Shown here: one piece after another, positions 18,541 to 48,934 of the stretch
Layout of the letters: every line of letters starts with the position of its first letter
Numbering within the stretch: position 1 is the first letter of the stretch
Assembly: GCA_964014485.1 (NCBI GenBank)
Contig: CAXHAT010000023.1
Span: 1-55,118 of the forward strand
DNA length: 55,118 nt
Origin: an uncultured Deferribacteres bacterium
GTDB taxonomy: Bacteria; Zhuqueibacterota; Zhuqueibacteria; Zhuqueibacterales; Geothermadaptataceae
Reading direction: 5' to 3'
Program-made: the position numbers and the translations under genes
The notes under the pieces: generated by a model
What the model was told of the DNA's origin: nothing
The model's input: only the letters and a program-made list of their open reading frames with translations
The model's database searches: none

Positions 18541-18556
18541 TGGCACGCGTCTTGAG
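18541..18556 (+). promoter_or_regulatory. Putative sigma54 -24/-12 promoter
   Basis: TGGCACG-CGTC-TTGA; candidate enhancer repeats tggcgatttcaccg (18334-18347) and tagccatttcacca (18355-18368), 21 bp apart. Confidence 0.6.
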
Positions 18557-23308: not shown

Positions 23309-26300
23309 CTAGGCACGTGCGTTTTCCGTCGCTACATCGTTAAGCACATCATGAATCACTCCGCCTAACTCTTCAATATTGAATGGTTTGGAGATGTAAG
23401 CCGCGAAACCGAAATCGCCGTATCTCGCCAAAATCTCATCGTCAGAATATCCGCTGGCGACGATGGCTTTTACCGCCGGATCGATGCGTCGAAGTTTTTC
23501 AATGGTTTGCGCGCCGCCCATGCCGCCAGGAATCGTTAAATCCAGCACGACAATGTCAAAAGCGTTTTCCGTGTTCATCTTTTCCTTGAAGCTGCGAAGC
23601 GTTTCATGACCGTCTTTTGTCGTGTGAACCGTGTAGCCGACATCGCTCAACATCGTCTCCACTACACTGCGAATCATAGGATCGTCGTCCATGTACAAGA
23701 CGTGCGCTTTTCCTTTGATGATTTCTCGAACGCGTCGCGGAGTTTCCAGACGCCGCTTTTGAGTGGCGGGCAAGAAGATGTGCATTTCCGTCCATTTCCC
23801 CGGTTCGCTCTCCGCAAATATGCATCCGCCGTGTTTCTGTATAATCGAATGCGCAGTCGCCAGGCCAAGGCCGCTGCCCTTTTCTTTCGTTGTGAAATAG
23901 GGATCAAATATCTTTCTAAGATTCCTTGCTGAAATGCCGCGTCCGCTGTCACGAATGGAAATTTCAATGTACTTGCCTTGCTTCAATGGCGTCTTTTTTT
24001 CATCTATAGCGGAAACGTTGCGCGCTTCAACTCTTACAACGCCGCCGTTCTCCATCGCTTGCTTGCTGTTCAAAACAATGTTGTTGATCGCTTGATTGAG
24101 CTGTCCTTCGTCAACTTCAGCGCACCAAAGATCGTTCGGTAATGAAAATTGAGAATCCACGTTGCTGCCGCGCAAAGAGAATTTCGTGGCGTTTTTGAGG
24201 AGCTTGCGCAGCGAAACAATGCGTTTTACCGGCGCCCCGCCTCTGGAGAAAGTCAGCAATTGGTTGGTAAGACCTCGGGCGCGGTAACAGGCTTTTTCCG
24301 CCTCATCGAGAAACGCCGACGATTCGCCGCGAAAATCTTCGTGCATTTTCGTGATCGAAATATTGGCGAGAACGCCGGTCAGAATATTATTAAAGTCATG
24401 AGCAATGCCGCCGGCAAGCAAGCCCAGTGATTCCAGTTTTTGCAGCTTGAGCGCTTCCTGCGCCATTTTTTCAAGCTCAGTTGTGTCGCGCAAAACTGCG
24501 ACAGTACCTACAATTTTTCCCTTCACGTCGCGAATCGGCGCAATGCTGAAAGCCATTCGCTTTGACGCGCCGTTCAAATCGACAAAAGACCGGCTTTGGG
24601 CGGACTCCAGCAGCTCGCCAGACTCAAGAACCGTTTTGACCAACCCCCCAAAGTCATTTTCGTTTTTTCCTTTTTCGGAAATGAAAACTTCGTCCAATGT
24701 CCTTGCAAAAGCGTCTTCTTCCGATACACCGGTAATCACTTCTGCGTTGCGGTTCATCAGCGTAATTTTGCCGTAAAGGTCGGTCGCGATCACCCCGTCG
24801 GCAATCGAACTCAGCGTAACCGACAAACGTTCTTTTTCTTCCAAAAGAGCGTCTTCGGCCTCTTTGCGCTTGGAAATATCGATGGCGATGCACAACGCCT
24901 GCGTCGCCTCGCCGTCATCATTCACAATCGGGCGTTTAACAACATGGAGCCAGCGTTGTTCTCCCGCCGCGTTCACAAAAGGCGTTTCAGAAATAAGCTT
25001 CTCTTCCCCGGCCGCCATAATTTCCAAGTCGTCCGCGGAGCCGTCGAATCTTGAAATCGCGCTAAAAATGGTTGAACTTACGTTTTGACCAAGCATCTCT
25101 TCAACAGTTTGGCCATACTCCTCCGCCGTCGCCTTGTTTACCAGCGTGAATTCGCCCCGTTGATTGGTGGCGAAAATATAATTCGGCTGAATATCCAAAA
25201 CCTGCCGCAAAAAGGCGCGCTGCCGGTCAATTTGCTTTTGCGCCTTTCTCTGAGCGCTGATAGCGTTGATCCGCTCAAAAGCCGCCGACAAGTGATCCGC
25301 GAGACCGTTCAAATAGTCGGCTCTCAAACTCGAAGGCGCGCTCGAAACCTTGGAAGAAAAGGCTCCCATCCCCAAAGTTCCATGGATCGCATCGCCGTGA
25401 CGAATCGGAACAAACCAGAGGGTGTGGTTGCCCAATTTATCAACGATTTCTTGGGGAAAATCCACAGGAAACCGCGATCCTGAATAACAAACGACCTTGT
25501 CTTTTTTCGCAAATGCTTCGAGTGCTGAACAGCTCTTTTTTCTGATTGGAAAACGCTCCGGCGAGGCGTTCCCTGAATTTGACGAACAAACTATTTCAGC
25601 TTTTTCACTTTCCGGATTCAGTAGAAAAAACGCATAATTTTCAAAAGGAAGCTGCTCTCTCAGCTCGCTAAACACGCTCTGAAAAATATCATCCTCGTTT
25701 TGAGCCAGTTCGAGCTTTTCAGAAACGCGCAAGAGCGATTGCATATGTTTTTGGCGTTTTTGCAGCGCATTTTCGGCGTTTTTCCGGTCAGCCACTTCCG
25801 CTTCAAGTTTAGTGTTCAAAGCGCTCAAGGCGTGGTTTTTCGATTGCTCTGCAAGAACCGTTTTTCTTTTCAAGCGCGTCGAAACGTACAGAAGCCCGAC
25901 AATCACGAGAGCAAGCGCCAAAGTAAAAAACAGAGCGTTGTTCAATTTGGCTTCTTGTTCCAGCGCCTTTTGTTTCTGTCGCGTTTCATACTGCGCCTGC
26001 AAATCAGCGAATTCTTCATCTCGCTCCTTGCGATGAATCGAATCCGCAAGCATCGCTGATTTTGAGAGATGGTCGTAGGCAAGCGAAACGTCACCTTTTC
26101 TTTCAAAAATGAGCGCCAATTGCTGGTTGAAGTCGCGCAATTGATACAAAGAATTTAAGCGCTCGGCGATTTCAAGCCCCTGTGTAAGCTGCGGCAGCGC
26201 AGCGGCGTCATCGCCTTGTGCGACGTAAATCGCGGCAATTTCCGCCAGCGTGTTGCAGAGTTCCAGATCGTTCTTGGCCGCGATCAACTTTTCCTTGGTT

Positions 26301-26998
26301 TGCAACAGGAAATCGAGCGCTTTCTCATTCTCACCAAGCTTTCGGTAGGCTTTCCCTAAGACGCCCAACGTAAAAGCGATGTTATGCTCGTCTCCGATAC
26401 GTTGCTTGATTTCAAGCGCCTGGAGTGCAAATTTCTTGGCGTTATCGTAGTCTTCCTCGGCTTCATAAATCGCCGCAATATTGTTCAATGTTTGCGCGAC
26501 GCCCACTTCATCGTTGAGTTCTCGAACGATTTTCAGACATTGGAACGCCCAGTCCAGGGCCAGGCTGTCTTGCTCATTGTAAAAATATATGTTCATGATG
26601 CTGAACAGCGGGCCGACCATCCCCCGCTTGTACCCAATTGTTTCACATAAATCGAGCGAACTATGCGCAGCAGCGAGAGCTTTATCAAAAGACCCCTGAA
26701 TGCCGTGCGTCCGGCTAAGATTATTACAGGCAAGAATCCGCAGCATCGTATCGCCGTTCTTCTCGGCGATTTCTTTCGCCTGTTGCGCAAAATCCAACGC
26801 GCGCTCAAAATCGTTGTAGGCGAATTTTCGGCTTAGCTTTAACAGCACATCGATTTTCTGGGAATCGGTTGCAGCACTTTTCAACACATTGATCAGGCTG
26901 TCAGGGGCGGGCTTTGCTTCAGAAGTTTGTTGCGGCTGCGCCTGAATGGCGGCGTGGCTGGTAAGAAGGAACAGAACGATTAAAGTAGTTTTGCGCAT
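23309..26998 (-). CDS. Hybrid sensor histidine kinase (TPR sensor, TM, GAF, 2x PAS, HisKA, HATPase, receiver)
   Basis: ATG 26998 after GAGGAG; signal peptide; AGGIAHDFNN; FDPYFTTKEKGSGLGL; MDDD/LDLTIP/KPF. Confidence 0.93.
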   Translation of the reverse strand: MRKTTLIVLFLLTSHAAIQAQPQQTSEAKPAPDSLINVLKSAATDSQKIDVLLKLSRKFAYNDFERALDFAQQAKEIAEKNGDTMLRILACNNLSRTHGIQGSFDKALAAAHSSLDLCETIGYKRGMVGPLFSIMNIYFYNEQDSLALDWAFQCLKIVRELNDEVGVAQTLNNIAAIYEAEEDYDNAKKFALQALEIKQRIGDEHNIAFTLGVLGKAYRKLGENEKALDFLLQTKEKLIAAKNDLELCNTLAEIAAIYVAQGDDAAALPQLTQGLEIAERLNSLYQLRDFNQQLALIFERKGDVSLAYDHLSKSAMLADSIHRKERDEEFADLQAQYETRQKQKALEQEAKLNNALFFTLALALVIVGLLYVSTRLKRKTVLAEQSKNHALSALNTKLEAEVADRKNAENALQKRQKHMQSLLRVSEKLELAQNEDDIFQSVFSELREQLPFENYAFFLLNPESEKAEIVCSSNSGNASPERFPIRKKSCSALEAFAKKDKVVCYSGSRFPVDFPQEIVDKLGNHTLWFVPIRHGDAIHGTLGMGAFSSKVSSAPSSLRADYLNGLADHLSAAFERINAISAQRKAQKQIDRQRAFLRQVLDIQPNYIFATNQRGEFTLVNKATAEEYGQTVEEMLGQNVSSTIFSAISRFDGSADDLEIMAAGEEKLISETPFVNAAGEQRWLHVVKRPIVNDDGEATQALCIAIDISKRKEAEDALLEEKERLSVTLSSIADGVIATDLYGKITLMNRNAEVITGVSEEDAFARTLDEVFISEKGKNENDFGGLVKTVLESGELLESAQSRSFVDLNGASKRMAFSIAPIRDVKGKIVGTVAVLRDTTELEKMAQEALKLQKLESLGLLAGGIAHDFNNILTGVLANISITKMHEDFRGESSAFLDEAEKACYRARGLTNQLLTFSRGGAPVKRIVSLRKLLKNATKFSLRGSNVDSQFSLPNDLWCAEVDEGQLNQAINNIVLNSKQAMENGGVVRVEARNVSAIDEKKTPLKQGKYIEISIRDSGRGISARNLRKIFDPYFTTKEKGSGLGLATAHSIIQKHGGCIFAESEPGKWTEMHIFLPATQKRRLETPRRVREIIKGKAHVLYMDDDPMIRSVVETMLSDVGYTVHTTKDGHETLRSFKEKMNTENAFDIVVLDLTIPGGMGGAQTIEKLRRIDPAVKAIVASGYSDDEILARYGDFGFAAYISKPFNIEELGGVIHDVLNDVATENARA

Positions 26999-27327
26999 TG
27001 GTCGGCGGTCTCCTCTCTCATGTGCGTAGCTGCGTCTCAAGAGTGAATGAGGGTAGAACGCGCCCAAGCAATGCTTGCCGCAGTCTCTCTCAACGCTCAC
27101 GCCTTCCGCGGGATGGAAGTGAGTGAATGACTTTCCTGTCTTCCTATAAATTACGATTGAAAACAGAAAATGCAAAACTTTACGCCGGAAATAAAATCAG
27201 GCGCTCTCAACACGCCGCTGCGCTTGCACAGATTCATGAGTCAGGATTTGCATCTGCGCAGTATTTTTTTTACCGTTGTTTCACCAAGAAGACTATTTCC
27301 AACGATCATCAACCCGGGTTTCTGAGC

Positions 27328-28710
27328 ATGGCTGCAACGGAACAAACCATTCTTTTTGTGGACGACACAAAAGCAATGCGCGAGCAATTTGCGTATGACA
27401 TACGTCGAAAAACCGGGCATAAGGTTTTGACGGCGGCCAACGGCAGAGAAGCGCTGCAAATACTCGTCGGACAGGTTATTGACGCCGTCATCCTCGACCT
27501 TGAAATGCCGGTTATGGACGGCTTGACGACGCTTGAAAAAATGGTCGAGAAGAACATGGCGAATATTCCCGTCATCGTTTACACCGGGCGAGGGAACTTT
27601 CAGAGCTGCGTGCGTGCGGTGCAATTGGGCGCTTATAACTTTTTCGATAAAAATGAAACGACGCTCGATCAACTCGTTCGTGCGCTTGAAAACGCGCTCG
27701 CCCACCGACGGCTTTTGGATACAAAAAGCGAGAAGAAGAAAGGCGCACAGCAAGACTCTCCGCTAATCGGAGAAAGCGCCGCGATGGTTGCATTGAAAGC
27801 GCATCTCGCACGCGTTGCTGAAGCGCCGAGCAATGTTCTCATCCACGGGGAAAGCGGCACGGGCAAGGAATTGATTGCGCACGAAATTCATCGTCTTAGC
27901 CCGCGTTCGAAAGGGCCGTTTGTCGCCGTCAACTGCGCGGCCATCCCGGAAAATCTGGTTGAAAGTGAATTGTTTGGTTTTGAAAAAGGCGCTTTTTCCG
28001 GCGCAGGCAAAACGACGAAAGGCAAGTTCGAGTTGGCTTCCGGCGGGACGCTTTTCTTGGACGAAATCGGCGACATGCCGCTTTCGGTGCAAGCCAAATT
28101 GCTGCGCGTTTTGCAGGAGGGCGAAATAACCCGGATCGGCGGAGAAGCGCGGGTGATTCGAATTGACGTACGCGTTGTTTCGGCGACGCACCGAGACCTG
28201 GAACGAGCGGCGGAGCAAGACGAATTCCGCATGGATTTGTTTTATCGCATCGCCACACACATTGTCAAAGCGCCCCCGCTGCGCGAGCGTATTTCTGACG
28301 TTGAAGAGTTGTCTCTATTTTTGATTCAACGCATTTGTAAACGCTTCAAGACCCCGAGAAAAATCATTCACCCCGCAACACTCGCATTGCTGAAAAACTA
28401 TAACTGGCGCAAAAACAACGTACGTGAACTTGAGAATGTCCTGGAACGTGCGCTGGTGGCGACAAACGGTGATGAAATTCTGCCGGAAAACCTTCCTGAT
28501 GAAATCGGCGGGCGAGAGAATTTGAACAGCAGCGGCGAGCAAAAATCCTTTCAAGAGCTTCGGCGCACGGCGGAACGCGACATCCTGCTACAACACTTGG
28601 AAGCCAACCATTGGCACATCACCAATACCGCGAAAGCGCTGGGCATTGCCAACCACTCCAATCTGCTCAAAATGATGCGAAGGCTGGGAATCCAAAAGCC
28701 GGGAGCTTGA
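27328..28710 (+). CDS. NtrC-family sigma54-interacting response regulator
   Basis: Receiver domain (VDD, LDLEMP); GESGTGKE; ESELFG..KGAFSGA; FLDEIG; NVRELEN; C-terminal HTH. Confidence 0.93.
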   Translation: MAATEQTILFVDDTKAMREQFAYDIRRKTGHKVLTAANGREALQILVGQVIDAVILDLEMPVMDGLTTLEKMVEKNMANIPVIVYTGRGNFQSCVRAVQLGAYNFFDKNETTLDQLVRALENALAHRRLLDTKSEKKKGAQQDSPLIGESAAMVALKAHLARVAEAPSNVLIHGESGTGKELIAHEIHRLSPRSKGPFVAVNCAAIPENLVESELFGFEKGAFSGAGKTTKGKFELASGGTLFLDEIGDMPLSVQAKLLRVLQEGEITRIGGEARVIRIDVRVVSATHRDLERAAEQDEFRMDLFYRIATHIVKAPPLRERISDVEELSLFLIQRICKRFKTPRKIIHPATLALLKNYNWRKNNVRELENVLERALVATNGDEILPENLPDEIGGRENLNSSGEQKSFQELRRTAERDILLQHLEANHWHITNTAKALGIANHSNLLKMMRRLGIQKPGA

Positions 28711-37601: not shown

Positions 37602-38825
37602 TCAAAAATACGTCGCCAGCCCAAATTGAATATTCGCGGCCTTCGCCAGATTATTGGCGAAATCGTTCGACCACTGTCGCCAATAGCTGATTCGCAGCGT
37701 GGTGTCGGAAGTCGGACGAAATCCGACGCCCGCCGTAATGCGACGAACGTCATCGCCAATATTTTGGGCCGTCTTGTCGAATTCGCCGACGTTGAGATCG
37801 ATGTAGTCAAATCTGGTAAAAAACGACAACGCTGCGTCCGGCATATCGAAAAGCGGGCGACGCAGGAAAGTATAATTTCCCTCAAAATAAAAGCCGCGCT
37901 GACTTTCAGCGAGAAAATCGTTGTCGACATGATCCGTCGGAATGTCGATTGAAGCCGTCGCCGCTTCTCCGCGAGCCAGCAAGCGCCGCCATCGATACTC
38001 AAAATCAAAAGCGAGAATCCGAACGTTGCGTTTGTGATCGATAACATCGCCTTCAATTGAGTAAGTGTTGTAGGCTCCGGAATAGAACGACAGTCCGAAC
38101 TCGCCGCCAAAACGCGAGTTGTAGGCCAAGCGTCCCGTCAGAGCCGGCGAGCCGTTGTTGTCTTCTGCAAACGCTTCTTCTCTTTTTCCTGCCGGGATGC
38201 GCACGCCGCCCGCATCGCCGAGAACGACGCCGTCGCCCAATCCGTTCACAGCGTAGATTTCGTAGCTGAAGCGATCATAGGGTGTAGCGTAAAGCGCTCC
38301 AAAAACGCCCACGCCGACTTCAGAAAGCGTGGCGGGAATAATCTGCGTCGAAACCAGAGGGCGGTCGATGACATTGTAGCGCGGGCTGTCGTGGGTGATA
38401 TTGAAGCGTCCAATGGGCGGGAGCAGGATTCCGGCGCGCAGATTGAATGTCGTGGAAAAAAGGATATCCGCAAGAGCAGTTTCGAGGGCGATTTCTTCCG
38501 TGCCGTGCTCAAACTCCAGCTCAGAAGTCAGTTTTACTTTCTCCGAAATAGAAGAATAGAGAAAGATGTTGAAGCGGCGCTGTTCAAAGGAAAATCCTTC
38601 GGTCAAGCCTTCCGTCTGTTCATAATTTGAATTCATTTCAGCGTAGCCGCCGACGGCGGTGTTTCCCCCGAGTTTGAGAATGTAGGGGCGGTCGTAAATG
38701 CCGCCTTGTTGGAAAGGCGTCTTGGTGGAATCCGTCGTCGAAGTTTGGGCGTTAAGCTTGCCTATTCCAAACAAGAAAAAAAGTGTCGTTACCACAACGT
38801 TCTGAAACGTTTTTTTATTGAGCAT
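37602..38825 (-). CDS. Putative outer-membrane beta-barrel (OprO/P porin-like)
   Basis: Signal peptide; SELEFEHG, LRAGILLPPIGRFN..HD; terminal Phe (ATYF). Confidence 0.75.
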   Translation of the reverse strand: MLNKKTFQNVVVTTLFFLFGIGKLNAQTSTTDSTKTPFQQGGIYDRPYILKLGGNTAVGGYAEMNSNYEQTEGLTEGFSFEQRRFNIFLYSSISEKVKLTSELEFEHGTEEIALETALADILFSTTFNLRAGILLPPIGRFNITHDSPRYNVIDRPLVSTQIIPATLSEVGVGVFGALYATPYDRFSYEIYAVNGLGDGVVLGDAGGVRIPAGKREEAFAEDNNGSPALTGRLAYNSRFGGEFGLSFYSGAYNTYSIEGDVIDHKRNVRILAFDFEYRWRRLLARGEAATASIDIPTDHVDNDFLAESQRGFYFEGNYTFLRRPLFDMPDAALSFFTRFDYIDLNVGEFDKTAQNIGDDVRRITAGVGFRPTSDTTLRISYWRQWSNDFANNLAKAANIQFGLATYF

Positions 38826-38926
38826 TTTTGAGCCGAACTCTCGCGGAGGGGCGAAATAGATTCCTCCAAGATAACATTGGGGGCGTGCGCTCATTCCGCC
38901 CTTGAAAAAAAAAATGGGTAGAAACA

Positions 38927-39358
38927 TTACTTCACCTTTATCAAAAATTCGTTTTCATTTTCAATCACTTCAAAGCGCTGCAAGGGGTCAGAAGCGGGTC
39001 CTTCGGCGACCTCGCCGTCGAGCTCGAAGGCCGAGCCGTGGCACGGACACTCAAAACCGTCGGGCATCGGGCGGACTTCACAGCCGGCGTGAGTGCAAAC
39101 GGTTGAAAACGCCGTCACGCCTTGCTCGCCGATATTGCGTACAGCGATCTGGATGGGCAAATCTTGAGCACGAACCATGAGAAGCCCGCCTTTGGTCAGC
39201 AATTGTGCGTTGTCAGCCTTTGAAATTTTGATGAAACCGTTTGCCATCTCGCCGCGATAGGACGACAGGCCGCCGGCGCAGCCCGCCATAAGCGCCGGAG
39301 ATGATACGACCGCAAGGGCTCCGCCGAGTTTCCCCACAAATTCTCTTCGTGTTTGCAT
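38927..39358 (-). CDS. Tat-exported Rieske [2Fe-2S] protein (possible lipoprotein)
   Basis: TRREFV Tat motif; MAGC; CTHAGC and CPCHGS. Confidence 0.93.
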   Translation of the reverse strand: MQTRREFVGKLGGALAVVSSPALMAGCAGGLSSYRGEMANGFIKISKADNAQLLTKGGLLMVRAQDLPIQIAVRNIGEQGVTAFSTVCTHAGCEVRPMPDGFECPCHGSAFELDGEVAEGPASDPLQRFEVIENENEFLIKVK

Positions 39359-39371
39359 TTCAGGCTCCGGT

Positions 39372-40595
39372 TTAAAGCGATTTTAAAAACGCCAGCAGCG
39401 CGCTTTTGTCGTCTTCGTTCAAATTCAAAAACATGTCTCGGCTTCGGGTCGCTTCGCCGCCGTGCAAACGGATAGCTTCAGTTAAATCAGACGTACGTCC
39501 GTCGTGCAAATAGAATGGCTCGCCGCCGAGAAGATTTTCGACGATGCCAAGCCCCCAAAGCGGCGTTGTGCGCCACTCGGTTCCGGTCGCGTCGCCTTCC
39601 GGAAAATTGTCCGCCAGCTCCGTCCCCATATCGTGGAGCAGCATATCTGAGTACAACTCAACGTTTTTGAATGCCAAAGCCGCGATTGGGCTGGGGCCGG
39701 TTTCCATGGTCGGGATGTGGCAGGAAGCGCAATAAATCTCCGAAAAAATGCGTTCGCCGTTTTGCACTTCCGGCGAATCGATGTCACGGCGCAGCGGCGG
39801 TCTCAGCGTTTGCAGATAAATAACGACATTGTTGACGACCTCGGCGGAAAGTTCCGGGTCTGTCGCATTGTCGCCGACGCGATTGCCGACGAGCGGATTA
39901 AAAATTTCTTCCGGGATAAAATCTGTGGTGATCCCCATATCATCGTGGTAGGCGTTAGCGGTTTGCTGCAACAAGTTGATAGTTGTCGCCTTGCGTCCGA
40001 AGCGGCCCAGATACTTGCCGTTACGAATGACTTTGTTTCCCTGTAACTCGAGCCATTCCGGGGCTTCAACAAAGTTGGCGCGCCCGGAAATCCCGTCGCC
40101 GTCAGCATCGGACGGATCTTCATTTGCGAGGATTGTTTCATCGGGGATGGCTTCAATCAAACCAAGTCCGACGACGATTGGGCCGCCGCGCTCGGAAAAT
40201 CCTGTGGCTTCTTGCGGCAATTGTTCAGCGGGGTAGCCGGGGATTGCTCGGTCTTGTAACTGGGGGCCGCCGCGATCGACCATGTAGTCGAACTCACCGT
40301 TCGCCGTTTCCCTGCCAAATCTGACTAAGTTTGTGGACGGGTGACCGCGCCCTTCGTCGATGTGACAAGTCACGCATGCGGCTTGATTAAAGACAGGCCC
40401 AAGGCCGGTTGCCGGGGTAAAAATTTCTCCAAACGCTTCATCGCCGGCCAGATGCGCCGAAAGTTGAATCGTCGACAAATCATCAAGCGGTGCGTCAAAA
40501 ATCTGATCGTCAGGCGGCGATTCGGTCAGGATCGAATCGCAGGAGGTTAATAAAAGCGTACCCCCAAGTACAAAAAGTAAAAATTTTATCTTCAT
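39372..40595 (-). CDS. Di-heme oxidoreductase (DHOR-family) lipoprotein
   Basis: Lipobox LTSC; CVTCH and CASCH; GLGPVFN, GRFGRKA, LLHDMG, WRTTPLWG, LHDGR. Confidence 0.9.
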   Translation of the reverse strand: MKIKFLLFVLGGTLLLTSCDSILTESPPDDQIFDAPLDDLSTIQLSAHLAGDEAFGEIFTPATGLGPVFNQAACVTCHIDEGRGHPSTNLVRFGRETANGEFDYMVDRGGPQLQDRAIPGYPAEQLPQEATGFSERGGPIVVGLGLIEAIPDETILANEDPSDADGDGISGRANFVEAPEWLELQGNKVIRNGKYLGRFGRKATTINLLQQTANAYHDDMGITTDFIPEEIFNPLVGNRVGDNATDPELSAEVVNNVVIYLQTLRPPLRRDIDSPEVQNGERIFSEIYCASCHIPTMETGPSPIAALAFKNVELYSDMLLHDMGTELADNFPEGDATGTEWRTTPLWGLGIVENLLGGEPFYLHDGRTSDLTEAIRLHGGEATRSRDMFLNLNEDDKSALLAFLKSL

Positions 40596-40652: not shown

Positions 40653-41243
40653 ATCAGATACGACTAAAGCAAGCGTTTTTTATTTTGGAATTCATTTTGG
40701 TGGATTCAGTTGGGAGAAGAACGAAAATTATGTCTTGAAATTTCGTCAGTTTTGACGAATCATTTCCTTGAGATTCAAGGATTTCCTAAAGCGCAGTTTT
40801 TTGAGGAATAGGGGTAAAAAAATTAGGCCAGCCAGGAACAAGAATTGTTTTGTTCCCGGCCGGCCTAACACAGTTATTGGAATTTTATCCGGTTTTGCCC
40901 GGATGTGAGCAAATTTGCTTGAATTTCGCTTATTTGCCCGAAATTTCGAGAGCAAAAGCAATCAACGAGCAACCGCACAAGACGAATAATACTTCAAACA
41001 TTTTGCACCCTCTTCAATTTTGTTCTTTTCATCCTTTGAGTTTTTCTTTGTACAATCCCTTGTACACCCCTGTTTTGGCAAGTACCTTGCCAAAATCGAG
41101 ATAGGTCAAAAAGACAACTATTTGAGAGCGCTTCCCGGATTTTTTTGAGTACGTTAAAAATCAGAATTCATCCGGGCGGCTTGCTTGCACAGTCGATGAA
41201 GGCGCGAGACGTCATTCATTTGTTTGCAACCAAACCGTCCAGT

Positions 41244-42449
41244 TCAAATGAAAATCTGTACGCCGGGGTACGAATCCCCTTTTCTGATTGGAGGCGCGAA
41301 CCAAACTCCGCTTGCCGCAACATGCGTGAATACCGGCGAGTTCCCATCGTCGGGGCCGCCGAAATTGACGCCGCCGAGCCAATCCTTGCGCGTCAGTAAA
41401 TTCATGACGCGGGCGGGGGTATCGACAAATGAAACGAAGTTCAAGCCGACCCGAGGCCTGCCTTCAACAACGCCTTCTGAAAACTCATAGCCTTGCCTGT
41501 AAATGCGTAGCGAATCGGGATTTTCAAAGTCAAACGAGTGATGATTCGCACGCTGGACATGACTGAGCTTGATCATATCGTCTACAGCCATCGGCGGCTC
41601 GCGAAAAGGATCATAGCTTTGGTCTTCAAAAAATTCGGGAGGTCTAGGCGGGCAAGCGGAAATCGGCGAGTAGTCCCCATCTGAATTGATTAGGCCTGTG
41701 ACCGGGCATCCGGTTGGCTTATCGCGTCCAACCAGTGCTTCCTGTTCGGCCAAACTGATCGTTTCCCAAGCTTCGAGATCGACAGGCATGCGCATGAAAA
41801 CCATGTAGCAGCCGCCTTTTGTCCAAGCGTCTTGAGGTCTGGTTTGTTTAACTTCGATTGTTTGTCGGCGCTGCTCTCCGTGACGCAAGTTTGAGATCCC
41901 GTCATGGAATCCGATCCAGCTCCTGCCGTCTTTTGGTTGAAATCCCATGTAAGAACCGTTGATGTTCAATGCTTTGAGTACGCTCTCTTCTCGCGTACAT
42001 ATTCGCCACGCTTCAACAATTCCGCGCTCAACAGCCGTTTGCGTTTTTGCGGTAAACTGGACAACGACGCCGCAGTCAGCAGGATTGCGTGCGGCCGTCT
42101 TCTCATACCCGAGCCCAGCCCCTCGAAGTATCGTATTACCGACGCGGGGCTCCAAAGTTCTGAATTGATTCTTCGGCGCCAACCCGTCCGGCTCGGCTTT
42201 TTTGACGCCGTTGAGTGCGAAAATCGCTTTTCCATATCCAATCAGGAGAGCCAGTTCCGGCGATGGGATGTTTCGTTCCGGGATTCCCAAATTCACTTGA
42301 CTTTGAAACTCTTCCAGCTTTGTCCAAAGGTCATGAATCGCGGAACCAACTTCTTTCGTCGAAGCCCCTTCCTTTATGACAAAAAACAATAAGCCAAACG
42401 ATGCGGGCGCTCTCTGCCCCTCTCCCCAATATACGCCTTGTTGTAACAT
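41244..42449 (-). CDS. Dyp-type peroxidase
   Basis: GFHDG (GxxDG), QEALVGRDK, SHVQRAN, IYRQGY, GLNFVSF. Confidence 0.85.
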   Translation of the reverse strand: MLQQGVYWGEGQRAPASFGLLFFVIKEGASTKEVGSAIHDLWTKLEEFQSQVNLGIPERNIPSPELALLIGYGKAIFALNGVKKAEPDGLAPKNQFRTLEPRVGNTILRGAGLGYEKTAARNPADCGVVVQFTAKTQTAVERGIVEAWRICTREESVLKALNINGSYMGFQPKDGRSWIGFHDGISNLRHGEQRRQTIEVKQTRPQDAWTKGGCYMVFMRMPVDLEAWETISLAEQEALVGRDKPTGCPVTGLINSDGDYSPISACPPRPPEFFEDQSYDPFREPPMAVDDMIKLSHVQRANHHSFDFENPDSLRIYRQGYEFSEGVVEGRPRVGLNFVSFVDTPARVMNLLTRKDWLGGVNFGGPDDGNSPVFTHVAASGVWFAPPIRKGDSYPGVQIFI

Positions 42450-42461
42450 GTCGCCCCCCTG

Positions 42462-43691
42462 CTATCGGTTTTTATAAGCGTTTAACAGCGGAACAACAAA
42501 CTGCGCGCATTCTTTGGCTTTGTGGCAGCCGAGCGGGTTTGTCACAGACTTAACTTCGACAAAATCATCGTCCCCCAAGGTCGGACCATCCCCAATCGCC
42601 ATCAATGGCCCGACCTCAATTTTGCTGACTACGTCAAATCCTCCAGCGACGCGGCGCTCTTCGTTTCCAGTCGCCACAAAAATTTCATCGAGAAAAACCG
42701 GATCATCATCTCTCGGCCCGAATTCCAACCGTTGATACATACCGGGCTTGCCGCGTGATAATTTGACCCATTCCGGCGGAGCAGGCTTATTTTCAAAGTA
42801 AAAACTCTCCGTCAACGCCTTCACATCGGTGTTGATATAAACGCCGAGCGGATTGGCAAAGGCAACCTGTTGGCCTAGATGAGCAATGCGAGACGCAGTC
42901 AGAGCGACGGTTGCGTCAGCATGTCGGCAGGCTCGGGCATTCTGACCAAGAATTTCATATTTTGTCGCTTCGCGGCGTTTATCATCTCCCCCCATGACGA
43001 CAAACGCCTGCGCCCCCAAAGCGACAACATCAATCAAATGCTGCAACCCGTTTATGGGAACCATCATGAAAAGATTAAATTCGGCATTCAGCGTTCCGCG
43101 AGGATGCCAGCCGAACTGCGATCGGTAGCGGCCAAATCCCGCAGTATGCGCATTAAATCGTCGTTCTCGTTCATCCCACTCAACATCGTTTGGGGACTGA
43201 AGATCAGGCCCGTAAATCTCTTGCCACCTGATCTCTCGCCCAGCTATTACCTGGGTTATTTCCTTCAGCTTTTCGGGCTGGTAAGCCGCGAGAGCCCCCC
43301 AGTACTCCCGCAATTCCGTCGAAACGATGACGCGCTTCGGGCGCATTCGTCCCTTGTCATCCTTCTTGCGAACGACTTTGTATTCTGCATATTCATTATG
43401 TAAAAACAGCCTTGCCAGCAGCCCCCAATCACATAATTCGCGCGTCAAGTCTTCATCTTCGGAAAGGCAGGCGCGAACCATGGCAGGATTGATTGGCCAC
43501 TTACAGGCGTTTGTGGTTTGGCCGTTCAATAAATCGGCCGGATCGAGTAGAAATTTGCTTTTTTTACGCCTTTTCAAAGAACGGTCGGCAAGTATTTGAA
43601 TCCGCTCGTTCCAGTCGAAAATAATCTGGTCTGAAACTTCGTCCGCGAAGCCGGGAACGTCAAATATTAGTTTAACGTTTTTCGTGTTCAT
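42462..43691 (-). CDS. Uncharacterised protein cotranscribed with the Dyp peroxidase
   Basis: Long ORF ending 12 bp before dyp; motifs HNEYAEY, STELREYW, ANPLGVYI, SRG..GMYQRL. Confidence 0.75.
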   Translation of the reverse strand: MNTKNVKLIFDVPGFADEVSDQIIFDWNERIQILADRSLKRRKKSKFLLDPADLLNGQTTNACKWPINPAMVRACLSEDEDLTRELCDWGLLARLFLHNEYAEYKVVRKKDDKGRMRPKRVIVSTELREYWGALAAYQPEKLKEITQVIAGREIRWQEIYGPDLQSPNDVEWDERERRFNAHTAGFGRYRSQFGWHPRGTLNAEFNLFMMVPINGLQHLIDVVALGAQAFVVMGGDDKRREATKYEILGQNARACRHADATVALTASRIAHLGQQVAFANPLGVYINTDVKALTESFYFENKPAPPEWVKLSRGKPGMYQRLEFGPRDDDPVFLDEIFVATGNEERRVAGGFDVVSKIEVGPLMAIGDGPTLGDDDFVEVKSVTNPLGCHKAKECAQFVVPLLNAYKNR

Positions 43692-43710
43692 TAACTTTGC
43701 ACCCCATGTT

Positions 43711-43726
43711 TTCAATCAGTATGCCA
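43711..43726 (-). promoter_or_regulatory. Putative sigma54 -24/-12 promoter
   Basis: Minus strand TGGCATA-CTGA-TTGAA, about 20 bp upstream of the ATG at 43691. Confidence 0.65.
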
Positions 43727-43843
43727 CAACTAGCGAGAATCTGACCCGCAGGCTCAAAATTGGTTTGATTTTTTTTATTGAAGGGAGTTTAAATGATTGC
43801 CCTAATGGTTTTATTCGCTCTGTTCTTAGCAACGCCCCAGCAG

Positions 43844-43945
43844 TCGTAAAATTTTGCGTACAGATATGCGTACCAAAGATCAGATCTCGCTCGCAAATTT
43901 TTACGATTTTGCATTATACGCTCACAAACTCGTAGAAATTTACGA
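43844..43945. promoter_or_regulatory. Three 16-bp palindromic candidate enhancer (UAS) sites
   Basis: tcgtaaaattttgcgt (43844), tcgcaaatttttacga (43891), tcgtagaaatttacga (43930); consensus TCGYA-N6-TRCGW. Confidence 0.7.
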
Positions 43946-45490
43946 TTTCCCGATTCCATACTTGGCCATTTTGTTCCGAATTGTGCCTTCCGTGACGCCG
44001 AGAGCAACCGAAGCGCGCGAGCGATTCCAGTTGTGACGAATGAGCGCTTTTTCGATATGCGGCGCTTCAGCCTTTGCAACAACTTCAGCAAGCGAAGCTA
44101 GCGACTCTTCCTTCGTTTTTTGTCGCTGGAAGGCGTCAAACGCTTCCTTAAAATCTTGCGGAAGGTTGGCGCGTCGAATGATGTTGACGTTTTCGGGAAG
44201 CTTGGCCGCCAAGCGCTCGACGAAGTTCCGTAATTCCCGTATATTTCCTTCCCAGGGATACTCTCTTAAGAATGTGATCACATCTTGTGCAAACTTGCTC
44301 GCATTTTTCTTTTGCGCTTCGGGAGAAATATCCAAAAAATGGTATGCAAGCATACGGATGTCTTCTCGCCTTTCGGCCAGAGACGGAATGCGAAAATGGT
44401 AGACTAGTAGCCGATACATGAGGTCTTCGCGAAACTTGCCTCCGTTGACAAGCTCTTGTAGCGACGTCTGCGATGCTGCAATAATTCTGACATTGACCTG
44501 TGTCGTTTTCGTACCTCCGACCGGACGAATCTCACGGCTCTCCAAAAACCTCAACAGCTTGGCTTGCTGAGCAAGAGGGATGTTTTGCACTTCGTCCAGA
44601 AAAACCACACCGTTGTTGGACGCCGCAAGCAATCCTTCCCAATCTTCTTCGGCGCCTGTAAAAGCGCCTTTCTTGTGACCAAAAAGCGTACTCTCCAACA
44701 AGTTCTCGGGAATAGTGCTGAAATCAATAGGCGTAAACGGAGCTTTGCCGCGATCACTGAATTTATGGATGAGTTCCGCGACAACTTCTTTTCCCGTCCC
44801 AGTAGCGCCTTCGATGAAAACGGTTGAGACGCTTTTCGCGGCAGTGTCGATTTGTTTGACGAGCTTGCGGATGGTTTCACTGCGTCCCTTCAAGCCAGCT
44901 TCGTTGTATTTCTTCAGTAGACCTTCATCATCGACATGGGCGAAGTACTCTTTGATTTTTTGGCTATTGCGCAGATGTGGAGAGATGACGCAGACGAAGC
45001 GTTCGAGCAGATCAAGGTCTTGTTTGGAGAATACGGGGCCGTTCAGCCGATTGACAAGCATTAAAGAGCCGAGGAATTGGCCTTCAGCCTCGAGAGCGCT
45101 GGCTATAATGGATTGAGCGTCATGAGTATGCGTCACTTGTTTCCGCAGTCTTTCGTCGTCTTTGGCGTCCCTACAGAAAAACGGCTTTCGATTTTGATAA
45201 ATCCAGTAGTTGACGGAGTATTGTATATGTTTGTCTTTCTCCGCCTTACTCGATTTACCTTTCCCTTGAATCATTCTGACTGTTTCGTTGGTTTGCGGGT
45301 TCATCATAAGCAGGAAGGCTTCGTGAGCCGCAAACAATTGCTTCGCTTCGTAACGGGATAAGCGAAGGATCTCTTCGAAGTCGTCGATGGCGGCGAGCGT
45401 CTTTGCCAGTTCCGTAATTCGCACCAGAGCATGAAGTCGGTTCGACTCCGGCGTTTTTGCAGTTCTCTTAAAAACATTCATTTTCGCCAC
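43940..45490 (-). CDS. GAF-domain sigma54-dependent transcriptional activator (Fis HTH)
   Basis: N-terminal GAF; GATGTGKE; ESTLFGHKKGAFTGA; FLDEV; WEGNIRELRN; HTH. Confidence 0.92.
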   Translation of the reverse strand: MAKMNVFKRTAKTPESNRLHALVRITELAKTLAAIDDFEEILRLSRYEAKQLFAAHEAFLLMMNPQTNETVRMIQGKGKSSKAEKDKHIQYSVNYWIYQNRKPFFCRDAKDDERLRKQVTHTHDAQSIIASALEAEGQFLGSLMLVNRLNGPVFSKQDLDLLERFVCVISPHLRNSQKIKEYFAHVDDEGLLKKYNEAGLKGRSETIRKLVKQIDTAAKSVSTVFIEGATGTGKEVVAELIHKFSDRGKAPFTPIDFSTIPENLLESTLFGHKKGAFTGAEEDWEGLLAASNNGVVFLDEVQNIPLAQQAKLLRFLESREIRPVGGTKTTQVNVRIIAASQTSLQELVNGGKFREDLMYRLLVYHFRIPSLAERREDIRMLAYHFLDISPEAQKKNASKFAQDVITFLREYPWEGNIRELRNFVERLAAKLPENVNIIRRANLPQDFKEAFDAFQRQKTKEESLASLAEVVAKAEAPHIEKALIRHNWNRSRASVALGVTEGTIRNKMAKYGIGKS

Positions 45491-45558
45491 TCGGTTTAAA
45501 AAAGTGTTCCGATTTCCGTTCAGTTTAAAAGTTACGACAGTCTAAAAATCTGAGCGTT

Positions 45559-45777
45559 TTACTTGGATTTTTTTCCTGACATAGCGCTGTTCATCATTGC
45601 TTCGGTTGTCATCTGCCGATCAATAACCACTTGCAGCGTATCATTGATCGTTTTCAGAAAACAATATAGATCTTCATCGAAACCTTGCAAGCGGGTCATG
45701 TCGGGCATAGGGCCGGTTAGTTTTCCGCGATTTACGGCGTTCGGATCAGAAATAACATCAGGCCAATCGTCAATCAT
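45559..45777 (-). CDS. Small hypothetical protein (72 aa)
   Basis: AAAGGAG RBS upstream of ATG 45777; MIDDWPDVISDPNAVNRG...; lies between the kinase and activator genes. Confidence 0.6.
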   Translation of the reverse strand: MIDDWPDVISDPNAVNRGKLTGPMPDMTRLQGFDEDLYCFLKTINDTLQVVIDRQMTTEAMMNSAMSGKKSK

Positions 45778-45925
45778 GGCAGACTCCTTTTGTATGGAAT
45801 TGTTAATGGATTGATTTTCAGATTCTCGGCCGGTAAGCAAACCCCAGTTCTTATCCCCCTGGAATTGTCCCCCGAAAAACTGAAACGCTTCAGAACGGAA
45901 ACCGAAACGCGCAATTAGTAGACAA

Positions 45926-48715
45926 TTATGGCGCCAATCTTTCCTTAACCTTTTGCAAGAGTCGCATTTCCGCATCAGCTTCCTTAAGAATCGCCAGGCA
46001 TTTTTGGAATTCCGCTTTTGCTCGAGCGCGATCATTTTTATTTTCAAAGATTTGGCCGCGAAGGAAATAGGCTTTTGCAGAAGCAGCATTAATCTCAAGG
46101 ATTTTGCCCGAGGCTTTCAGCGCCTGCGCAAAATCGCCTTTGAGAAACCATGCTTCGGCTATGCAAAATTCGAAAAGATCACGCTCCCAGACCCCCAATT
46201 CTAACGCCGCAATGTATTCTGCAATCGCCGCATCAAAATTCTTTGTTTTTTCAAAATACTTTCCCTTTAAAAGATAATAATACTCTTTCTCAAAGTTTAC
46301 CGCAGCATCGCTAAAATGCTCTTCCATTTCATCAAGAAGCGCCAGCGCGGCTCCAGGCTCGCCCTGCTCCAGTCGCGCCAACCCGATAGCGCATTTCATT
46401 CGTATGTTTTCGGAGGACGAGCCGATGAATGGAGTCAATTCTTCCAATGCTTTATCGATTTTATCATTTTCAAAATACAAACGCGACAAAGCCAGGGCGC
46501 CTTCTCTTTTCTTGCCATTCCCTGAAGCCATCGTTTTATATTTTTGGAACAAACCTTTTGCTTCTTTCTGCTTACCTCTTCTCAAGGCCAATCGTCCCTT
46601 AAGCAGCGTGATGGACTCAGATTTCTCAACCAGAGGCGCCGCCTTTGCAAAAGCTGAATCGGCCTCTTCATAACGCCCCGTGAGCATATACAGCCCGCCC
46701 AATCGACTATGCCCTTCTGCGGATTTCCATCCGTATTCGACAGCTTGTTTGTACGCCGTTTCCGCTTCATCAACTTGGCCCGACAAAACGAACGCATTGC
46801 CAAGATACCGGTAAAATTTCGCCTGCGATGAGTCGAGCTTTATCGCATGTTTGTAAGAATTAACGCCTCCTTCCAATTGACGTTCAATCGACGTAAGATG
46901 CCATCCCTTTTGAAACCACCACTCAGGATTATTTGGATCGAGCAAAATCAACTCTTCCAAGTTTTCAAAAACCACATCATAAAGCTTCTGAATCTTCGCT
47001 TGTTCCATTTCAAATTCAAACTTGGCGATTGGCGAGCCTTTGGGCAATCGTCTGAGCGCTTCGGCAGCATCTTTTAAAGCCCGCTCCTCATCTCCCAATA
47101 CGTTGTAAGTCTTCGCCCTTTCCAGGTAAGCTCGGGCGAACATAGGATCTAGATTTATCGCCTGATTCAGCGAATCAACCGCGTTCCCATACTCTCTCAT
47201 TTCCCTTTCGCGTTGAGCGCCGAGGTAATATAAATACGCCCGAAACGAAGAGGTCCTAACGCGCTCCCCCGAAACTTCATAACCAAGCGCTTTTGCTTCG
47301 AGCTCAAACCGGACCCTGGTGACAAAATCATCAACCATCTCATTCAAGTCAGAATCACCTAAAAAATCGAGAGCTTCAGTCAGTTTTTTTTCTCCGTTTT
47401 TAAGGTCATAAACGGTCACGGACAACCGCAAGTGATTGTCATTAATTCGAATAAACGAAGAGTGAATCGCAACCTCGATTTTCGTTTTTTCAAAAAGTTC
47501 TTTAGCCGTTTCCGAAGACATCTCGAGAAAGTTGGGCGCTTCGGCTTCATTAAACGGTGTGAGAAACTTCTCGGAAGGGATCAGATCGATGTATTTTGAT
47601 CGACTCAGACTGGCCTTGATCAACTCGGCAATAATAATTGATTTTTTTATATCTTCAGCATCAGTGCCGCCGTTAAGAATCGGCAGTACAGTGACGTTAA
47701 TTGTCGCCGACTGCCGGGGAGGGGTATCTCCAGATTCTTGGACAAAATAATAAGTAAACGACGTAGCCACTACTGCAAGCATCGCCAGCATTTTCTTGAG
47801 TATAGAAAAGCGTTTATTTTTTTTCGTCCTCTGAACTTCGTTTCTCCCATCATTCTTCTCCAAAAAACGCTGGCTGGCCGTTTCCAGCGTGACGTCATCA
47901 AGCGCATTTGATAAAGCATCTCCGTTTTGATATCGTCGTTCCGGCTCCTTCTCCAGCAACTTCATGATAATTGCACTCACGGAAGAAGAAATTTCGGGAT
48001 TAATTGTTTCCGGCGGAGCGGGGTCTTCATTGCCGATCGCATAGATGATAATTTCGTTAAACTCGCCGCGAAACGGCAATTGCCCCGTCAAAGCTTCGTA
48101 AAGCACAACCCCAAGCGCCCACAAATCAGACCGGGCGTCGGCGTCAAAACCGGCGACCTGCTCCGGCGCCATGTAGGCCGTTGTTCCGAGCGTATCTTGA
48201 TGGCGAGTCAGGCGCGTCTGAGAAGTAAAACGAGCGAGTCCAAAATCGGCGAGCTTAATCGTGCCGTCTTCGGCGAAAAGAAGGTTGGCGGGCTTTATGT
48301 CGCGGTGAATAATATCTTTCTTGTGCGCCATTGCCAAGCCTTTGGCAAGCCCTGCGGCCTGGTTGACCATATGATCTAATTCAATGTCGTCCGCTTCAAT
48401 CCGATCCTTCAACGAACCATTCTCGTAGCAGGCCATTGCGATAAAAAGACGGCCGTCGGGCGCTTGGTCAATTTCGTGAATCGTATAAATATTGGGGTGA
48501 TCCAAAGCCGAGGCTGTTTTGGCTTCCTGGATAAAGCGGAGTTTGACTTCTTCCTCAGCGGCAAGATAATGCGGCAAGAATTTCAGTGCGACAAGACGGC
48601 CAAGCGTTGTATCTTCGGCTTTATAAACCTCACCCATCCCCCCTCGCCCCAACTCTTCGATGATTCGGTACTTCGAAATCCGCTTGCCAATCATGCCGTT
48701 GGTAACTGAAAACAA
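45926..48715 (-). CDS. Transmembrane Hanks-type Ser/Thr kinase with C-terminal TPR region
   Basis: GRGGMGEVY, VALK, HRDIKPAN, DFG, YMAPE; single TM; multiple TPRs. Confidence 0.93.
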   Translation of the reverse strand: MFSVTNGMIGKRISKYRIIEELGRGGMGEVYKAEDTTLGRLVALKFLPHYLAAEEEVKLRFIQEAKTASALDHPNIYTIHEIDQAPDGRLFIAMACYENGSLKDRIEADDIELDHMVNQAAGLAKGLAMAHKKDIIHRDIKPANLLFAEDGTIKLADFGLARFTSQTRLTRHQDTLGTTAYMAPEQVAGFDADARSDLWALGVVLYEALTGQLPFRGEFNEIIIYAIGNEDPAPPETINPEISSSVSAIIMKLLEKEPERRYQNGDALSNALDDVTLETASQRFLEKNDGRNEVQRTKKNKRFSILKKMLAMLAVVATSFTYYFVQESGDTPPRQSATINVTVLPILNGGTDAEDIKKSIIIAELIKASLSRSKYIDLIPSEKFLTPFNEAEAPNFLEMSSETAKELFEKTKIEVAIHSSFIRINDNHLRLSVTVYDLKNGEKKLTEALDFLGDSDLNEMVDDFVTRVRFELEAKALGYEVSGERVRTSSFRAYLYYLGAQREREMREYGNAVDSLNQAINLDPMFARAYLERAKTYNVLGDEERALKDAAEALRRLPKGSPIAKFEFEMEQAKIQKLYDVVFENLEELILLDPNNPEWWFQKGWHLTSIERQLEGGVNSYKHAIKLDSSQAKFYRYLGNAFVLSGQVDEAETAYKQAVEYGWKSAEGHSRLGGLYMLTGRYEEADSAFAKAAPLVEKSESITLLKGRLALRRGKQKEAKGLFQKYKTMASGNGKKREGALALSRLYFENDKIDKALEELTPFIGSSSENIRMKCAIGLARLEQGEPGAALALLDEMEEHFSDAAVNFEKEYYYLLKGKYFEKTKNFDAAIAEYIAALELGVWERDLFEFCIAEAWFLKGDFAQALKASGKILEINAASAKAYFLRGQIFENKNDRARAKAEFQKCLAILKEADAEMRLLQKVKERLAP

Positions 48716-48934
48716 TCTAGCTGTGGAACAGGTCCGAATGTCAATCGCAAAGAGAGTCCTTCCTGGCCGCAGCCAATTGCTGCGTCAAGCTTGCAAGCGT
48801 TTCCCCTGAGTCGCGTTTTACAAGCAATCTCTCAAGAAAATCTATCGCGTCATGCGACGGGCGAGAGTAAATGTAATCAAATGGATTCCAGTTAACGAAA
48901 ACTGTTGTACGAAATTCGCAAAAAATTTCGAGTT

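Follow-up and report, generated by a model that had tools for sequence, protein, structure and literature searches.

Activators of sigma-54-dependent promoters are classically described as acting downstream of histidine-kinase relays or as sensing a ligand directly. The FHA-domain sigma-54 activators of Myxococcus have reportedly been proposed to receive Ser/Thr kinase input, a view attributed to the 2005 work of Jelsbak, Givskov and Kaiser. PexR of Myxococcus xanthus is an activator composed of a GAF domain, an AAA+ domain and a helix-turn-helix (HTH) domain, without a receiver domain, whose GAF domain autoinhibits the protein. According to the available part of the PexR report, its sigma-54 promoter is preceded by three tandem interrupted palindromes of the 5-N6-5 type, its outputs are the haem or thiol peroxide-handling enzymes katB, ahpC and sometimes ccp, and the protein senses H2O2 itself via a Zn/Fe site formed by H102, H120, C122 and D140, no kinase being involved (PMC12754779). 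NorR of Escherichia coli, another GAF-type activator, needs three enhancer sites and its GAF domain represses the AAA+ domain until the signal arrives, as far as the accessible text of two reports goes (PMC2831303, PMC2941729). The present analysis concerns a locus at positions 41244-48931 of contig CAXHAT010000023.1 from an uncultured Deferribacteres bacterium, in which the gene of a Hanks-type Ser/Thr kinase stands upstream of the gene of a GAF-AAA+-HTH sigma-54 activator and of an operon encoding a DyP-type haem peroxidase. The whole stretch analysed, referred to as the window, is 55,118 nt long and belongs to a genome of 8.4 Mb (G000).

Five genes follow each other on the minus strand of this locus, coding for the kinase, a 72-residue protein, the activator, a 409-residue protein of family PF26676 and the DyP. 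All the parts that a preliminary description had listed on this strand were found in their places. The locus is probably a member, with an unusual output, of a phylum-wide cassette family in which a Hanks kinase is followed by a GAF-AAA+-HTH activator, by binding sites and a TGGCAC-N5-TTGA promoter, and finally by output genes; in the present case the cassette would control the PF26676-DyP operon.

This reading is carried by the conserved linkage of kinase and activator. The genome encodes about 46 sigma-54 activators. Its Hanks kinases number 27 in some 6,200 called open reading frames (ORFs), and on this basis a kinase neighbour is expected by chance at about 0.4% of loci. Six of the activators constitute one GAF subfamily with 37-43% identity. 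Two of the six are cut by contig ends and could not be assessed; a kinase is directly upstream and co-directional in three of the other four (C23, C15, C33), and MurJ is found instead of a kinase in the last one (C149). At E <= 1e-15, 46 of the phylum's 167 genomes contain the subfamily, a tally that includes the unpublished genomes G016 and G023. Among 37 subfamily loci from 15 related genomes, a sample from which two unpublished genomes were left out, the kinase is upstream within 1.1 kb in 20, upstream at 2.2 kb in one and directly downstream on the same strand in six. A further 40 loci were collected from 28 genomes outside the order, 8 of them with too little flank; the kinase is upstream in 26 of the 32 assessable ones, divergent in one and distant downstream in one. 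The gap between the two genes is 0-136 bp in 15 of 23 cases. Kinases and activators unlinked in other genomes had been named beforehand as evidence against the proposal; the opposite was found, the kinase being the immediate co-directional neighbour at most of the loci examined. The divergence of the GAF domain is correlated with that of the partner kinase domain (Mantel r 0.54, reached by none of 2000 permutations; r 0.70 between GAF and AAA+ within the activator) and their nearest neighbours agree in 11 of 40 cases. The pairing of kinase and activator has survived divergence to about 40% identity. Several points weigh on the other side: no kinase is present in the flank of 10 of the 37 related loci (two of these have less than 2.1 kb of upstream sequence) nor at 4 of the 32 assessable loci of the phylum sample, and the paralogous loci are kin, such that the counts overstate their independence.

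One cassette, L134 in genome G049 from another class of the phylum, resembles the present locus more closely. Its kinase aligns with the one described here over 924 residues with 35% identity and its activator is 42% identical; judged by these alignments, L134 is a true orthologue of the cassette. The outputs differ between cassettes, as had been anticipated, and many are exported proteins, including BTLCP peptidases, a GDSL lipase and a methyltransferase-desaturase set. In a related genome, the first output of a paralogous cassette is an encapsulin-like gene (L132, 7669-8655; Linocin_M18, E 2e-19). Encapsulins are shells for DyP cargo. The C33 cassette of G000 (L090, 10003-14445) lies upstream of genes for a HEAT-repeat protein, a PatG-like subtilase (PatG_D, PatG_C) and a phospholipase A2-like protein, which may form a peptide-maturation cluster.

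The kinase gene (45926..48715, minus strand) codes for 929 residues from its annotated TTG start at 48715. The family alignment, with its N-terminus MIGxxISxY, favors the ATG at 48695 as the likely true start. The protein matches Pkinase (PF00069, E 1.4e-50) and TPR families in Pfam. Its kinase domain is N-terminal with a complete set of catalytic motifs (GxGxxG at residue 23, VALK at 42, HRD at 137, DFG at 157 and APE at 183), and the C-terminal 600 residues or so contain TPR repeats. The kinase and TPR portions of the kinase-membrane span-TPR architecture proposed earlier were confirmed. As to the membrane span, residues 303-327 are the sole hydrophobic segment and reach a KD19 hydropathy of 1.49, below the classical threshold of 1.6, making a span at this position probable, not certain.

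The activator gene (43940..45490, minus strand) codes for a 516-residue sigma-54 enhancer-binding protein recognized with Pfam/NCBIfam models, with matches to Sigma54_activat (PF00158, E 2.9e-59), GAF (E 1e-7), HTH_8 (E 1.2e-9) and AAA_lid_14. Walker A (GATGTGKE) is found at residue 228, the GAFTGA motif at 275 and the DE motif at 299, and no Response_reg match was obtained in the Pfam scan. The domain order, the intact GAFTGA and the lack of a receiver domain are thus as previously described; with its AAA+ motifs and its GAF and HTH domains, the protein groups by sequence with the GAF-input enhancer-binding proteins and not with the receiver-type (NtrC-like) activators of two-component systems. 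No histidine kinase had been noticed in the locus, and indeed no HisKA or HATPase match is present there. The nearest one, at 23309-27175, stands at a distance of 16.8 kb and has a receiver-type activator of its own as partner. That separate region (23309-28710) encodes a 1288-residue TPR-GAF-PAS-PAS-histidine kinase-receiver hybrid, divergent from a receiver-AAA+ sigma-54 activator in which no HTH was detected.

In the GAF domain of the subfamily, N64 and P65 are invariant and T67, T70 and T73 nearly so, T73 being replaced by a methionine in the present protein. The hallmark N64-P65-x-T67-x-x-T70 is predicted to form a β-hairpin, with strands at 57-63 and 70-74 joined by a tight turn, and the T67/T70 hairpin of this model is a candidate phospho-acceptor. 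Speaking against such a role, the subfamily members without a kinase (10 of 37 and 4 of 32) keep the threonine hairpin, which may therefore be structural or ligand-binding instead of a phosphorylation site. No conserved His/Cys/Asp cluster resembling the PexR metal site appears in the subfamily consensus, weak evidence as the alignment was made without the PexR sequence. Longer relatives with a fused GAF region were looked for without success, which is weak evidence as well.

Upstream of the PF26676-DyP operon, a candidate sigma-54-type promoter, TGGCATACTGATTGAA (43711..43726, minus strand; TGGCAT-N5-TTGAA), has GG at -24 and GA instead of the canonical GC at -12. RpoN is encoded in the genome. 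A motif TGGYAY-N5-T(T/C)GA, on the same strand and 160-580 bp past the activator stop, is found in 14 of the 23 cassettes with an upstream kinase and in none of 11 unlinked activators, the rate expected from genome site densities being about 2.5% per locus. A promoter of the same type is present in 11 of the 26 kinase-upstream cassettes of the phylum sample, and L134 has its own, TGGCATTCTTTTTGAA, at +166. The alignment of 15 cassette promoters gives the consensus TTT.TGGCAC...CTTTGA.TT. In this lineage, TTGA often replaces TTGC at -12 of sigma-54-type promoters (L099-L168, and C16 and C247 of G000). Several of the best intergenic sigma-54-like sites of the genome also read TTGA, and the strict form TGGCAC-N5-TTGCW does not occur in its 8.4 Mb. 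Since the TTGA form recurs in paralogous cassettes, GA at -12 appears to be the local norm for the cassette family, and by its position the site at 43726 would sit where the family places its promoter.

Taken by itself, the site is less convincing. Sigma-54-like sites with scores in its class show no intergenic enrichment (68 of 530, compared with an intergenic fraction of 14.5% genome-wide), therefore the promoter rests on its context and not on its own score; genome-wide site densities give an estimated chance of about 3.5% for a site this good in the 224-bp spacer. The predicted transcript start, at about 43700, leaves some 9 nt before the ATG at 43691, a start codon fixed by the conserved family N-terminus (F/Y)DVPG, and a GGGG run resembling a Shine-Dalgarno sequence falls upstream of this transcript start. 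The leaders of paralogous cassettes are 37-212 nt long with a strong AGGAGG, and 9 of the 23 kinase-upstream cassettes have no such promoter. The -24/-12 promoter of the preliminary description finds support in the same layout in paralogous cassettes; its own score is weak and its -12 element deviates.

Three putative upstream activator sites were identified on the minus strand between the activator and this promoter: TCGTAAATTTCTACGA (43930..43945), which overlaps the TAA stop codon of the activator, TCGTAAAAATTTGCGA (43891..43906) and ACGCAAAATTTTACGA (43844..43859). The three palindromes and the stop-codon overlap were as first reported, except that the third site fits the pattern TCGYA-N6-TRCGW on the plus strand only, where it reads TCGTAAAATTTTGCGT, the minus strand being ACGCA...TACGA. 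The distance of about 120-220 bp to the promoter given at first agrees with the measured 127-213 bp from the site centres. The pattern has five strand matches at the three sites and none elsewhere in the 55-kb window; shuffled sequences gave a mean of 0.95 matches and five were reached in 1 of 100 shuffles. Of its 63 positions in the genome, three lie within 102 bp here, and the only two with an all-A/T spacer are both at this locus; such a cluster is far beyond chance. Past the activator, 5 of 41 cassettes, L134 among them, have palindromes of the form TCGYA-N6/7-TGCGA, and paralogous promoters have TGCGAA/TTCGCA elements at about -105 and -158. This geometry differs from that of the present locus (about -127 to -213), which counts against the cassette reading.

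Between the sites and the promoter, at about -52, an A-tract, AATAAAAAAAATCAAACC (43762..43779, minus strand), is a possible bend or architectural-protein site. A related AAAAACA(A/G) box, placed at about -137 in the promoter alignment, is found between two TGCGAA-type elements in 9 of 15 paralogous promoter regions (L101, L106, L108, L110, L114, L130, L132 and C33 and C368 of G000), about 128-141 bp upstream of the promoter (182 bp in L106), and it may likewise be bound by an architectural protein.

Feedback onto the kinase had been suggested from a similar site upstream of its gene, TCGAAATTTTTTGCGA (48916..48931, minus strand), 185 bp upstream of the TTG at 48715 and about 205 bp upstream of the ATG at 48695. 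This site has one mismatch to the pattern. With one mismatch allowed, the window contains 27 matches for 26.2 expected, and a site of this kind lies upstream of the kinase in 1 of 41 cassettes. Feedback through this site is unsupported. As to the self-contained circuit that had been envisaged, its architecture, linkage, promoter and variable outputs are supported, Ser/Thr phosphorylation may be its means of control, and its feedback is unsupported.

The following order of events can be proposed. The kinase, probably a single-pass protein with an outward TPR sensor, would detect a signal outside the cytoplasm. It would then control the adjacent activator, as gene linkage and co-divergence suggest, most likely by phosphorylation, with the T67/T70 hairpin as candidate acceptor. 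By analogy with NorR and PexR, the GAF domain would then stop repressing the AAA+ ring. The activator would be bound at the three 16-bp palindromes, a placement suggested by their extreme local clustering and by the like sites of paralogous cassettes. It would finally open the sigma-54 promoter at 43726-43711 and drive the PF26676-DyP operon down to a terminator at 40869-40822. Phosphorylation of the activator is what we infer from the arrangement of the genes and their common divergence.

The adjacency of kinase and activator could also serve co-expression only, in which case the GAF domain would sense its own ligand or a redox signal, perhaps peroxide, in the manner of NorR and PexR, and the kinase would phosphorylate other targets or simply tune the response. 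Precedents for a direct sensor exist, direct sensing of NO or H2O2 by GAF activators that have three 5-N6-5 palindromes being established in the available portions of the corresponding reports (PMC12754779, PMC2831303, PMC2941729), and the same GAF hallmarks are kept by subfamily members without a neighboring kinase. This explanation is nevertheless rather unlikely given a linkage that is tight, co-directional, often overlapping and maintained through divergence to about 40% identity; the subfamily consensus, in an alignment without the PexR sequence and thus as weak evidence, also lacks a conserved PexR-like metal cluster.

Other explanations concern the promoter and the target of the activator. 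Palindromes 1 and 2 are separated by a segment containing a perfect TATAAT, the sigma-54 site combines a non-canonical -12 with an implausibly short leader, and PexR itself represses a sigma-A promoter through its repeats, according to the accessible part of its report (PMC12754779). The operon might on these grounds be read from a sigma-70 promoter, with the palindromes as repressor operators and the sigma-54-like site as a chance match. The TATAAT has no acceptable -35, however, and is absent from the consensus scan list, and the TTGA form recurs at the same place and on the same strand in 14 of 23 paralogous cassettes, all of which makes this explanation improbable. More improbable still, by a wide step, is that the main target of the activator lies elsewhere or is its own kinase operon (through the 48916 site), the nearness of the DyP being incidental to a recent insertion of a mobile gene pair. 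The mobility of the PF26676-DyP pair, absent from all 40 related genomes searched, would fit such an insertion, as would the after-the-fact pattern TCGYA-W6-TNCGA, which has five positions in the genome, two of them at this locus. Against it, three strong sites and a promoter face the DyP operon, the one-mismatch pattern is at chance level, and 1 of 41 cassettes has a site upstream of its kinase.

Control of the PF26676-DyP operon by the kinase-activator cassette being the preferred reading, a broader and bolder proposal can be put forward tentatively. Much of the phylum may use a one-kinase/one-activator system in which a Hanks kinase phosphorylates an invariant GAF threonine hairpin, as a Ser/Thr counterpart of NtrB-NtrC, with up to about six copies per genome, each provided with its own sites and TGGCAC-N5-TTGA promoter; at the present locus, the system would switch on a DyP and an obligate partner whose fold is unseen among solved structures. 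A literature search covering few subscription journals returned no description of kinase/GAF-activator cassettes, no report of sigma-54 control of a DyP and no paper naming PF26676. PMC12316311 makes no mention of Acidobacteria, TTGA or threonine. The locus offers a clean genetic system in which a single kinase, a single activator and a single promoter are adjacent, and the -12 TTGA promoter model is usable for a poorly studied phylum.

The output operon consists of two genes. The 409-residue protein (42462..43691, minus strand) had no match in the Pfam copy searched, a copy without the PF26676 model; all of its 104 relatives are assigned to PF26676 by precomputed annotation. The protein lacks a signal peptide and possesses four invariant cysteines (C75, C255, C389 and C395), and its closest named relative, from a Pyrinomonadaceae metagenome-assembled genome (MAG), is 46% identical. 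Its AlphaFold model is confident (pLDDT 91.7, pTM 0.90). The whole model had no match in the Protein Data Bank (PDB) with Foldseek (best E 0.69) and a best Z of 3.4 with VIA-align wide among 48,161 chains; no match was obtained with the PDB sequence profile, and the protein-atlas search gave nothing at or above 0.9. As judged from these whole-model searches, the predicted fold matches no solved structure, which falls short of establishing a new fold.

The DyP-type haem peroxidase (41244..42449, minus strand; 401 residues, cytoplasmic) matches Dyp_perox_C (PF20628, E 1.3e-24) and TIGR01413 with 102.9 bits for a cut-off of 100.5. DyPs are defined by a GXXDG motif with the distal Asp, a proximal His and a distal Arg. 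In a check at the sequence level, GFHDG was found at residue 180, SHVQRA at 296 and RIYRQG at 315, and the protein belongs to the DyP family by its score and by these motifs. The nearest solved chains are the A-type EfeB/YcdB/DtpA (E about 1e-10); the present DyP has no export signal. Its gene starts 12 nt past the stop of the 409-residue protein and a terminator ends the transcription unit, in agreement with the two-gene output operon of the preliminary description.

The two genes constitute a widespread pair. A DyP homologue is located just downstream and on the same strand in 67 of 74 PF26676 loci (L003-L076); six of the other seven are cut or partial, and one, L063, has ample flank and no DyP. 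The hosts are cyanobacteria, actinomycetes, Bacillota, Bacteroidota, Myxococcota, other Pseudomonadota, Acidobacteriota, Chloroflexota and Planctomycetota, and one PF26676-DyP locus belongs to an ammonia-oxidising archaeon (Nitrosocosmicus MAG, L033). Across the 74 loci, no third conserved neighbour was found beyond lineage-level synteny, and none has the kinase-small ORF-activator trio. A search of 40 related genomes found the PF26676 protein in none of them. Widespread, absent from relatives and never accompanied by the trio, the pair therefore behaves as a mobile unit captured by a resident regulatory cassette. As a widely transferred pair, PF26676-DyP is a lead on what cytoplasmic DyPs do.

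The gene located between the kinase and the activator (45559..45777, minus strand) encodes a 72-residue protein predicted to be cytoplasmic. The ORF reported there is a real gene, with an AGGAG 6 nt before its ATG and a homologue at the same position in G049, where the kinase-activator gap of L134 holds a 113-residue ORF that can be aligned with it. The family is characterized by the succession W-P-x-V ... R-G-K ... I-V-x-D-R, and the G049 protein shares W-P-x-V, R-G-K and L-x-x-V-x-D-R with the 72-residue one. A first word-based search with the 72-residue protein matched only itself; with phmmer against 125,678 ORFs, the 113-residue ORF was its best non-self match (E 0.047). Among the 167 genomes of the phylum, two contain the family. 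When 1.84 billion representative proteins were searched with a profile, three members were retrieved, of which P0107 (E 1.8e-13) was new, and two metagenome scans with the small-protein alignments gave no match. The family is very rare.

A general role of the small ORF as a third cassette component was rejected: most gaps are of 0-136 bp and the larger ones hold unrelated ORFs (a hydrolase-like ORF, a toxin-antitoxin-like pair, a 108-residue ORF in C15). Its conservation is limited to the one orthologous cassette found, L134, and the 72-residue protein is a real extra component of this orthologous subfamily, probably a modulator or a kinase substrate. In L134, an 80-residue paralog of the small protein (G049:C46, 6844-7086) is the first gene behind the sigma-54 promoter, which suggests a feedback component encoded in the output. 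Such a copy recalls regulators such as PspA, which act back on their activator.

Non-coding boundaries and neighboring genes complete the picture. A terminator-like hairpin (45885..45910, minus strand) with nine pairs and a T-rich tail lies just past the kinase stop; recognized as a pattern match in a consensus scan, it may uncouple the small ORF and the activator from transcription of the kinase gene or reduce read-through into them. In the same scan, a strong intrinsic-terminator-like hairpin (40822..40869, minus strand; 20 pairs, of which 10 are G-C, and a T7 tail) ends the output operon. Between the DyP stop and this terminator, the perfect palindrome TTTTGGCAAGGTACTTGCCAAAA (41077-41092) has a sigma-54-like score on both strands and is followed by a 23-codon hydrophobic ORF, MFEVLFVLCGCSLIAFALEISGK (40930-41001). 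Just past the terminator, a second putative peroxide/redox cluster (37602-40595) comprises a lipoprotein di-haem oxidoreductase (DHOR, E 6e-70), a Rieske protein and a 441-residue protein without family. On the other side of the locus, an MsbA-like ABC exporter gene is located upstream of the kinase. Farther away in the window, a good sigma-54-like site, TGGCACGCGTCTTGAG (18541-18556), is found 193 bp upstream of an MscS-like channel gene.

Compared with known systems, the cassette shares with NtrB-NtrC the juxtaposition of a single sensor kinase gene and a single sigma-54 activator gene, with the putative target promoter adjacent. It differs by the absence of a HisKA/HATPase kinase and of a receiver, and the chemistry would be Ser/Thr phosphorylation instead of His-Asp transfer. 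With the FHA-type activators of Myxococcus, it shares the idea that Hanks kinases and not histidine kinases feed sigma-54 activators; the input of these activators is said to be an FHA domain, which reads phospho-threonine, and their kinase genes to be mostly non-adjacent, whereas here the input is a GAF domain and most loci have the kinase gene right next to that of the activator. NorR and PexR both share with the locus the GAF-AAA+-HTH build, three sites of the 5-N6/7-5 type and, by analogy, GAF autoinhibition. NorR, in the available text of the two reports, senses NO at a GAF iron centre without a kinase partner, and its sites and outputs differ from those of the present locus (PMC2831303, PMC2941729). 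The likeness to PexR, as far as the accessible part of its report allows, extends to the build of the activator, the three 5-N6-5 sites, the candidate sigma-54 promoter and a peroxide-type output (PMC12754779). The PexR repeats are however CACCG-N6-CGGTG and its gene is divergent from ahpC, in contrast with TCGTA-N6-TACGA and a gene co-directional with its output here; neither PexR-family repeats nor divergent ahpC, katB or ccp are found at the present locus. PexR is moreover described in that part of the report without a kinase, whereas the activator analysed here has a Hanks kinase as conserved partner and a DyP with a PF26676 protein as output (PMC12754779). Overall, the kinase-activator pairing suggests a hitherto undescribed route by which sigma-54 genes would be turned on with no histidine kinase involved; if true, it would add a third input route to sigma-54 activators.

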